Notes: generated by a model from the sequence alone, not told the origin. Positions 36,704 to 36,945 are shown, numbered from the stretch's first letter. The stretch: DNA of 56,911 bases from Thermoanaerobaculia bacterium (GCA_051305935.1 JBPPMG010000529.1:1-56911); one strand, 5' to 3'. A program made the numbers and translations.

Positions 36704-36945
36704 GTTGGTTGTAAGTTGTTAGTTGTTGGTTGTTGGTTGTTAGACAGGCAGCGCGGGGCGAAACGGCTGCGACTTGCGGCAGGAATGTGTGCCGCGAGCG
36801 AAGCGCCGAGACAAGACAGGCCGCACCAGCGGCGCGGCCTGTCTAACAACTAAAAACTAACAACTAACAACTAACAACTAACAACTAACAACCATTAACT
36901 AACAACCATCAGCCAACAACCAACAACCATCAACCAACAACCACC
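36704..36945. repeat. Composite element: 6 heptamers (GTTGGTT/GTTAGTT), a 95-bp core, then 15 inverted heptamers (AACTAAC/AACCAAC)
   Basis: Phased by hand. Left array 36704..36745, core 36746..36840, right array 36841..36945. GTTGTTAGACAGGC and GCCTGTCTAACAAC form a perfect dyad across the core. Confidence 0.9.

Follow-up and report, generated by a model that had tools for sequence, protein, structure and literature searches.

Paired arrays of inverted heptamers have already been reported in bacteria but are little studied, and neither their origin nor their function is agreed upon. In Xanthomonas campestris and X. axonopodis, ~90% of the GGGAATC heptamers are intergenic and lie near the stop codon of the upstream gene, and each genome has 70-75 convergent opposite-strand pairs from which a stem-loop or cruciform could arise (Rehm et al. 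2015, PMC4692102). Within the 50 nt that follow a stop codon, the G-rich strand is the sense strand; related species differ in the length of the arrays but usually share their type, whether single or an inverted pair; and the one genome-wide G-tract unit, for which a G-quadruplex was shown in vitro, was reported without a demonstrated function (PMC4692102). Here we describe e36, an element at positions 36704-36945 of a stretch of 56,911 nt from a Thermoanaerobaculia bacterium (GCA_051305935.1, JBPPMG010000529.1:1-56911; the whole stretch is hereafter designated the window, with a G+C content of 65% and ~90% of it coding), in which two further elements, at 39401-39522 and 55013-55180, are designated e39 and e55. 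With the Xanthomonas type e36 shares tandem units of 7 nt, a convergent pair that can form a stem-loop, a position next to a stop codon (8 nt), a copy number that varies with the pair being kept, and the same polarity, the sense strand being G-rich after stop codons. It differs in that nearly each locus has its own unit, that GTTRGTT lacks G tracts and permits no quadruplex, and that between the arms lies a 95-nt core containing a terminator-like hairpin; moreover, Xanthomonas belongs to the Gammaproteobacteria, whereas the host of e36, assigned through its protein relatives to uncultured Thermoanaerobaculia, belongs to the Acidobacteriota.

A second precedent is provided by the paired 'global regulator binding sites' of Geobacter metallireducens, which are short intergenic arrays on opposite strands at a variable distance from each other, exemplified by 8 pairs of MTYCTGA arrays with five heptamers each and 24 pairs of GTTGCTYN arrays with four octamers each; they were interpreted as binding sites for IHF/HU and reported without a demonstrated function, and the insertion sequences (IS) ISGme8 and ISGme9 stand at a fixed distance from paired sites (Aklujkar et al. 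2009, PMC2700814). The latter arrangement echoes a Y1 transposase unit found 9 nt from e36. In contrast to the present loci, the Geobacter sites have few units in a fixed number and form genome-wide families, and no growth series or co-evolution of arms has been described for them. Long simple repeats of heptanucleotides are, in addition, over-represented in bacteria, especially in the large GC-rich genomes of non-pathogens, and polymerase slippage has been proposed as the cause (Mrazek et al. 2007, as cited in PMC4679880 and PMC4692102). The TAACTGA repeats of Beggiatoaceae are likewise intergenic and oriented relative to genes, with one inverted case noted in the genome (PMC4679880). Both of these descriptions concern single direct arrays, and do not extend to inverted pairing and possible co-evolution of the arms as found at the present loci. 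A search of the literature on tandem repeats of Thermoanaerobaculia and on cyanobacterial 'tandem heptameric' repeats gave nothing usable.

To these precedents the present analysis adds locus-specific units, cores enclosed by the arms, another phylum, and comparative evidence on the growth and co-variation of the arms. We regard e36, with a probability of roughly 0.55, as a pair of complementary heptamer microsatellites that grew by slippage on an intergenic hairpin and that probably affects 3'-end formation or insulation. It is not a repetitive extragenic palindrome (REP) or bacterial interspersed mosaic element (BIME), nor is it cargo of the neighbouring transposase.

Architecture and folding of e36

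The element consists of three parts, and the division given by a first-pass annotation of the window, namely 6 and 15 inverted heptamers around a core of 95 bp, was borne out by Tandem Repeats Finder and by the pairing of the arms. The left arm (36704-36745, + strand), which is distal to the neighbouring crp gene, comprises 6 tandem heptamers GTTGGTT/GTAAGTT/GTTAGTT, read as AACCAAC on the - strand; the core (36746-36840, 95 nt) is unique to the locus; and the right arm (36841-36945, + strand) comprises 15 tandem heptamers AACTAAC/AACCAAC, read as GTTRGTT on the - strand, in the 3' untranslated region of crp. The latter gene (36954-37676, - strand) encodes a Crp/Fnr-family regulator, and its stop codon (36954-36956) lies 8 nt from the right arm, one nucleotide fewer than had been annotated. 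At period 7, Tandem Repeats Finder reported 5.7 copies of GTTAGTT at 36704-36743 and 14.1 copies of CTAACAA at 36843-36941. The two-unit pattern GTTRGTTGTTRGTT, with up to one mismatch allowed, had 14 matches in the window, all of them within the two e36 arrays (+ strand, 4; - strand, 10), and none in 100 shuffles. The right arm is homogeneous over the five to seven units that adjoin the core (five of GTTAGTT) and degenerate further out.

The arms proved to be reverse complements of each other at the level of the unit, as had been proposed, and their best pair (36704-36754 with 36832-36882) extends over 51 nt at 88% complementarity. The dyad indeed continues into the core, where it runs one heptamer length further into unique sequence, with GACAGGC at 36743-36749 facing GCCTGTC at 36837-36843; the left junction GTTGTTAGACAGGC (36736-36749, + strand), made up of the last array unit and the unique 7-nt stem GACAGGC, pairs with the right junction GCCTGTCTAACAAC (36837-36850, + strand). 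The core itself contains three small GC-rich hairpins, at about 36749-36771, at 36777-36796 and at 36814-36844. The second of these is the inner hairpin GCGGCA...TGCCGC recognized in the first-pass annotation, and the additional copy of AGACAGGC that was listed with it is present at 36814-36821; the core also allows alternative pairings, as anticipated there. The third hairpin (36814-36844, - strand), composed of AGACAGGCCGC, a loop and GCGGCCTGTCT and followed on the crp strand by TGTCT, has an 11-bp stem and was flagged by the terminator scan as terminator-like with a weak T tract. Read on the crp strand, the order is the stop codon, the GTTRGTT arm, this small GC-rich terminator-like hairpin in the core, and the AACYAAC arm.

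In the predicted fold of the whole element, a stem of ~45 bp closes a multiloop of the three small GC-rich hairpins. The calculated energies were -109.1 kcal/mol for the + strand RNA (z = -8.9), -114.6 kcal/mol for the - strand RNA (z = -6.0) and -64.4 kcal/mol for single-stranded DNA (z = -7.8), and no shuffle was as stable in any of the three calculations. A search of the whole window with Rfam 15 at gathering thresholds returned one tRNA and nothing else, and neither a direct repeat nor a target-site duplication is visible flanking e36. BLAST searches with the cores of e36, e55 and e39 against all loci fetched for comparison (designated by L numbers) gave no copies. One of these loci, the short-read contig L001 (Logan SRR22508403), is identical to the window and breaks inside the 15-unit arm, at the equivalent of ~36865. 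Since heptamer arrays fragment short-read assemblies, array lengths in metagenome-assembled genomes (MAGs) need caution.

Two intergenic sites compared among relatives

The site downstream of crp differs among relatives. Where the identity of Crp to that of the window is 86% or less (L010, L011, L007, L012 and L008), no array follows the gene. In L139, L140 and L141, which come from three samples and have an identical sequence and a Crp identity of 96%, the stop codon is directly followed by GTTGTTGGTTGTTAG-TTGAGT-AACAACCAACAACC and then by AACC, forming a hairpin with a 14-bp stem, two units per arm, a 6-nt loop and no core (dG of -21 kcal/mol, z = -4.3). In L006 (JGI 3300033568), with a Crp identity of 94%, the site is occupied by 4.5 units, a core of 110 nt and 6 units (z = -7.8), and in the window by 15 units next to crp, the 95-nt core and, beyond it, 6 units. 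The orthologous site thus presents a graded series, from nothing through a hairpin of 2+2 units to long arms of unequal size that enclose a core. In each of the three lineages that have arrays, both arms contain the A as well as the G variant of the unit (GTTAGTT/GTTGGTT). In the manner of microsatellites, the arms have a stable unit type and a variable copy number, and their core-proximal units are the most homogeneous. With unit counts of 15/6 in the window, 4.5/6 in L006 and 2/2 in L139, the independent change in arm length that had been presumed from the asymmetry of e36 was confirmed in its relatives. The cores of L006 and the window align weakly, and each of them, read on the crp strand, opens with a GC-rich hairpin in an equivalent position; the L006 core contains a canonical intrinsic terminator, GGGCCGTGC-GGGAT-GCACGGCCC, with a 10-bp stem and followed by TTTTATTT.

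At a second site, the spacer between the genes for deoxyhypusine synthase and a transglutaminase-like protein, an inverted heptamer pair was found in every relative recovered (the window, L133, L134 and L135). The window pair, e55 (55013-55180), has GGCCAGA on the left and TCTGGCC on the right of a 101-nt core; in L133 (9057-9256), 14 copies of GGCAGAA are separated from 12 copies of TTCTGCC by a loop of ~18 nt; in L134 (919-1216), an outer pair of GGCGARA and TCGCCTY encloses an inner hairpin pair of GAAGAGA and TCTCTTC; and in L135 (664-793, the same as L138), GGAGAAA and TTTCTCC flank a 62-nt core. Five units (GGCCAGA, GGCAGAA, GGCGAGA, GAAGAGA and GGAGAAA) have therefore been used in one spacer, with the arms complementary in 5/5 cases, and the arrays span the distance from the upstream stop codon to a conserved TATAAT that closely precedes the gene for deoxyhypusine synthase. 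The arms of this pair may co-evolve, either by selection for pairing or by copying between the arms; the site may instead have been refilled repeatedly, with which the data are equally compatible.

Strand polarity and other heptamer arrays

Inverted pairs follow a strand polarity. Among 38 of them in all fetched loci, the G-rich, C-poor arm is the 5' one in 30 and the C-rich arm in 4, mostly with gaps of more than 280 nt, the remaining 4 being neutral; pairs with non-complementary arms follow the rule too. Expressed equivalently, the sense strand is G-rich in arrays after a stop codon and C-rich in those that precede a start codon or promoter. When metagenomes were scanned for three consecutive GTTRGTT units, more than 120 contigs with 27-68% G+C were returned, none of them related to the lineage of the window; the scan accordingly bears on how far the inverted architecture and its polarity extend, and not on paralogues of e36. 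About 12 of 120 such contigs (41-64% G+C) have a complementary AACYAAC array 10-180 nt downstream, and the opposite order was found in 2. The cores of these metagenome pairs are all different, with an obvious terminator in some, and the polarity holds in metagenome contigs of 36 to 65% GC. In unrelated high-GC metagenome contigs, moreover, AACTAAC arrays end on the sense strand a few nucleotides upstream of a start codon (L123 at 8645-8722, L047 at ~250-285, L091 at ~1457 and L051 at ~1925), and these arrays resemble the Beggiatoaceae TAACTGA repeats, which lie upstream of start codons.

Scanning the window for periods of 5-9 at a threshold of 18 self-matches in 21 bases detected arrays only at period 7, in 10 segments at 6 loci, and a lower threshold added a seventh locus at 43828. 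All these loci are intergenic despite the high coding density of the window, and at least 6 different units are represented. Besides e36 and e55, the latter of which reads in full GGCCARA x5, junction AGCAGGC, the 101-nt core, GCCTGCT and TYTGGCC x4, they comprise a coreless pair of CTGAGTC x3 and GACTCAG x3 (8206-8252), which overlaps the stop codons of two convergent genes; e39 (39401-39522), in which the non-complementary arrays GCGGAAT x5 and TCGCCTC x4 surround a 57-nt hairpin in the archease-RtcB spacer; TTCGGAT x3 (43828-43850), located after a response-regulator gene; and GGCGRRA x4 followed by AGTGCTG x17.7 (56745-56911, + strand), located after recO and cut by the end of the window. 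The archease-RtcB gene pair (38941-40957, with its heptamer element in a 138-nt spacer) constitutes an indel with respect to both L006 and L139, where the Usp and FKBP genes adjoin each other.

The unit AGTSCTG/CTGAGTS, which contains TGA, was found at three unrelated gene ends (window 8206-8252, window 56788-56911 and L139 18812-18843), and the arrays at window 8206 and L139 18812 overlap a stop codon; a 7-nt unit with an internal stop codon gives stops in all three frames within three units. A further periodic repeat of 9/18/27 nt (GCGAAGGCG-like, 2-6 copies) lies at window 48885-48945 and is probably coding, since its period is a multiple of three.

Origin and possible role

Presumably, the arrays grow by replication slippage, units of 7 nt being favoured in this lineage as in several other bacterial lineages, and at e36 a short hairpin would have been present beforehand and both of its arms would have grown, which would explain why the arms are complementary. 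Complementarity would later be kept because pairing is selected for or because one arm is copied from the other by template switching, with the copy number largely free to drift. The long stem would clamp the terminator region, either in the transcript or in single-stranded DNA, and would most likely serve, where one transcription unit borders on the next, to form 3' ends, to insulate or to stabilise, with possible effects on 3'-end formation, read-through and RNA stability. Heptamer pairs are common in the lineage and strictly intergenic.

Several points weigh against this reading of e36. Termination or stability is a putative role, and the hairpin in the window core is followed by the weak T tract TGTCT. 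If the core terminated transcription efficiently, the distal arm would remain untranscribed and the long stem would not form in RNA; this, together with the origin of the core, is the weakest part of the proposal, slippage alone leaving 95-110 nt between the arms unexplained, given the simple hairpin in L139. The crp genes of the window, L006 and L139 form a near-trichotomy (nucleotide identities of 88.5, 88.0 and 86.4%), which is compatible with a gain as well as with a loss of the core. Nor is the polarity predicted by a neutral slippage model, a strand-symmetric process acting on DNA only being not obviously able to produce it. Finally, one family of arrays, GGCSARA with the junction AGCAGGC, is distributed in a manner that suggests dispersal rather than a purely local origin, as set out below.

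The proximity of a transposase gene had suggested in the first-pass annotation that e36 might be a REP/BIME-like hairpin repeat mobilised by a REP-associated tyrosine transposase (RAYT), and the arrangement does share with REP/BIME-RAYT (REPIN) systems intergenic hairpin-forming repeats with an adjoining gene for a Y1 (HUH) transposase. An IS-like unit (35472-36694, + strand) that is not part of e36 carries a Y1 transposase gene (35601-36572) and ends 9 nt from e36, as annotated; the protein matches Pfam Y1_Tnp and scores 75.8 bits against the NCBIfam model of the REP-associated tyrosine transposase, for which the cut-off is 80, and the Geobacter IS elements at a fixed distance from paired arrays lend the idea some analogy. 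However, the unit is bracketed by its own perfect 22-nt inverted repeats, GGTCACACCTAAAGTATAAAAA at 35472-35493 and 36673-36694, which have only these two copies in the window and are unrelated to the heptamers that the transposase would have to mobilise, a point already made in the annotation. Moreover, L006, L139, L140 and L141 have the heptamer hairpin at the orthologous site but lack the unit; since the L006 and L139 flank beyond the heptamers aligns with the window to the left of the left inverted repeat, e36 predates a recent insertion of the Y1 unit. The arms of e36 are tandem 7-mers and not the 20-40-nt palindromic unit of REP systems, and GTTRGTT dimers occur only at e36 in the window. 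Co-occurrence of arrays and Y1 genes, envisaged in the annotation, also failed to appear: a search of genomic loci with the Y1 protein led to four Thermoanaerobaculia MAG loci, in which ~67 kb around the homologues contain one heptamer array, and no Y1_Tnp matches are on record among the genes in ~70 kb from the array-rich relatives (L006 and L133-L141). An exact look-up of the Y1 protein gave no record. The unit carries small subterminal hairpins, and the homologue in L002 (48% identical) has a different perfect 27-nt terminal inverted repeat with the same GGGGTCA start, an IS-like behaviour. In a REP/RAYT system the repeats are short imperfect palindromes in many near-identical intergenic copies, and the RAYT gene is a single-copy resident, inherited vertically at a conserved locus and flanked by the REP sequences on which it acts. 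Each testable defining feature of such a system is lacking, the Y1 gene is a bystander, and we consider mobilisation of e36 by it very improbable.

Another mobile origin deserves more weight. Eukaryotic Foldback (FB) elements have arms of short tandem repeats, unequal in length, around a central domain that is variable or absent, and are demonstrably mobile and multi-copy. By description e36 resembles them in its inverted arms of tandem repeats, in the unequal lengths of these and in a centre that varies or is missing, and the arrays together with the 7-nt junction constitute terminal inverted repeats; it differs in that mobility, target duplication and a second copy were not found in the sequences searched. 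In a non-autonomous version resembling FB elements or MITEs (miniature inverted-repeat transposable elements), either the whole element would have been inserted, or the core alone into the loop of a pre-existing hairpin, with a transposase acting in trans. This would account for the sudden appearance of the element between relatives at 86% and 94% Crp identity, and the coreless hairpin of L139 is the empty target that it leads one to expect. The first-pass annotation had proposed to look for the core and the junction elsewhere in the genome; the core has no other copy in the fetched loci, and the junction motif RRCAGGC does recur. It stands within 10 nt inside the array boundary on both sides of e36 and of e55 and on one side of e39, against ~0.04 such occurrences expected from a background of 0.67 per kb, and is likewise on both sides in L133. 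Three non-orthologous loci in three relatives have in common GGCSARA arms, the junction AAAGCAGGC...GCCTGCTTT (AGCAGGC) and ~25 nt of core (window 55013-55180, L133 10747-11159 downstream of recO, and L139 11674-11891 downstream of ScdA). A MITE-like palindromic repeat of ~190 nt with CCCGCGAAGCGGG hairpins is present at L006 361-540 and L134 2737-2916 (78% identical), two loci of one metagenome, each copy adjoining CAGGCGAAGCC and then an AAATCCG array; a related sequence lies inside L133 10900-11030, and the repeat is not present in the window. Against an inserted element stand the lack of a second e36 core or of further GTTRGTT arrays in the window, in ~110 kb from relatives and among the lineage-related metagenome hits; the lack of a visible target-site duplication at e55 as well as at e36; the dissimilar interiors of the e36 and e55 cores, which on global alignment with shuffles (z ~0-1) share the 7-9-nt junction alone; the absence of the inverted junction motif from the L006 orthologue; and the fact that nearly each locus has its own unit. 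On balance, we judge such an origin unlikely for e36, though with a real share of the probability. Improbable, in turn, is the proposal that a protein binds the arrays as DNA or RNA, such as a nucleoid-associated or global regulator or a post-transcriptional one, with the pairing of the arms incidental. The regular 7-nt spacing, the intergenic position at gene ends and the consistent polarity relative to genes would suit it, and similar proposals were made for the Geobacter paired sites (PMC2700814) and the TAACTGA repeats (PMC4679880). However, within ~170 kb a single lineage has at least 8 unrelated units, and at a conserved site one unit gives way to another, too great a variety for any sequence-specific binder to recognise; binding does not require the complementarity that the arms always have; and copy numbers span 2 to 26.

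Beside these accounts stand further observations and discarded ideas. In L008, a more distant Thermoanaerobaculia MAG, inverted GGCAGAA/TTCTGCC arrays at 1458-1911 stand on either side of 390 nt in which two small genes (48 and 78 aa) are called, and inverted pairs of GGCAGAA are also found in L133 and in an unrelated contig of 39% GC, L063. The arrays were also considered as the U tracts of a bidirectional terminator, which was rejected since the hairpin is preceded by the T-rich arm and followed by the A-rich one, the opposite of what is needed. Repeated 7-bp target-site duplications were dismissed in that they would yield direct and not inverted arrays. An assignment of the transcribed strand from G-U versus A-C mismatches was abandoned because the arrays pair in many registers.

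Slippage growth on a pre-existing hairpin, as preferred here for e36, can be set within a wider picture, which we entertain tentatively as a possible but doubtful generalization: hairpins of inverted heptamer arrays may be a distinct, self-maintaining class of intergenic elements in several phyla, a prokaryotic counterpart of foldback elements, whose shaping takes place in the transcript or in single-stranded DNA. The strict polarity is what would point to this level. Were it true, the arms would co-evolve, the pair persisting as its unit sequence is replaced, and there would be either a dedicated copying between the arms or a general role as modular microsatellite terminators or insulators; some families, such as GGCSARA with AGCAGGC, would also disperse to new loci.

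For the annotation of genomes, heptamer hairpins can be mistaken for REP/RAYT systems where a Y1 gene lands nearby. The comparison contributes a stepwise series at one orthologous site, a second site at which the unit has been replaced and the arms are complementary, and a rule of polarity. The practical consequences are smaller; the origin of complementary arrays and any selection on the hairpin become directly testable.

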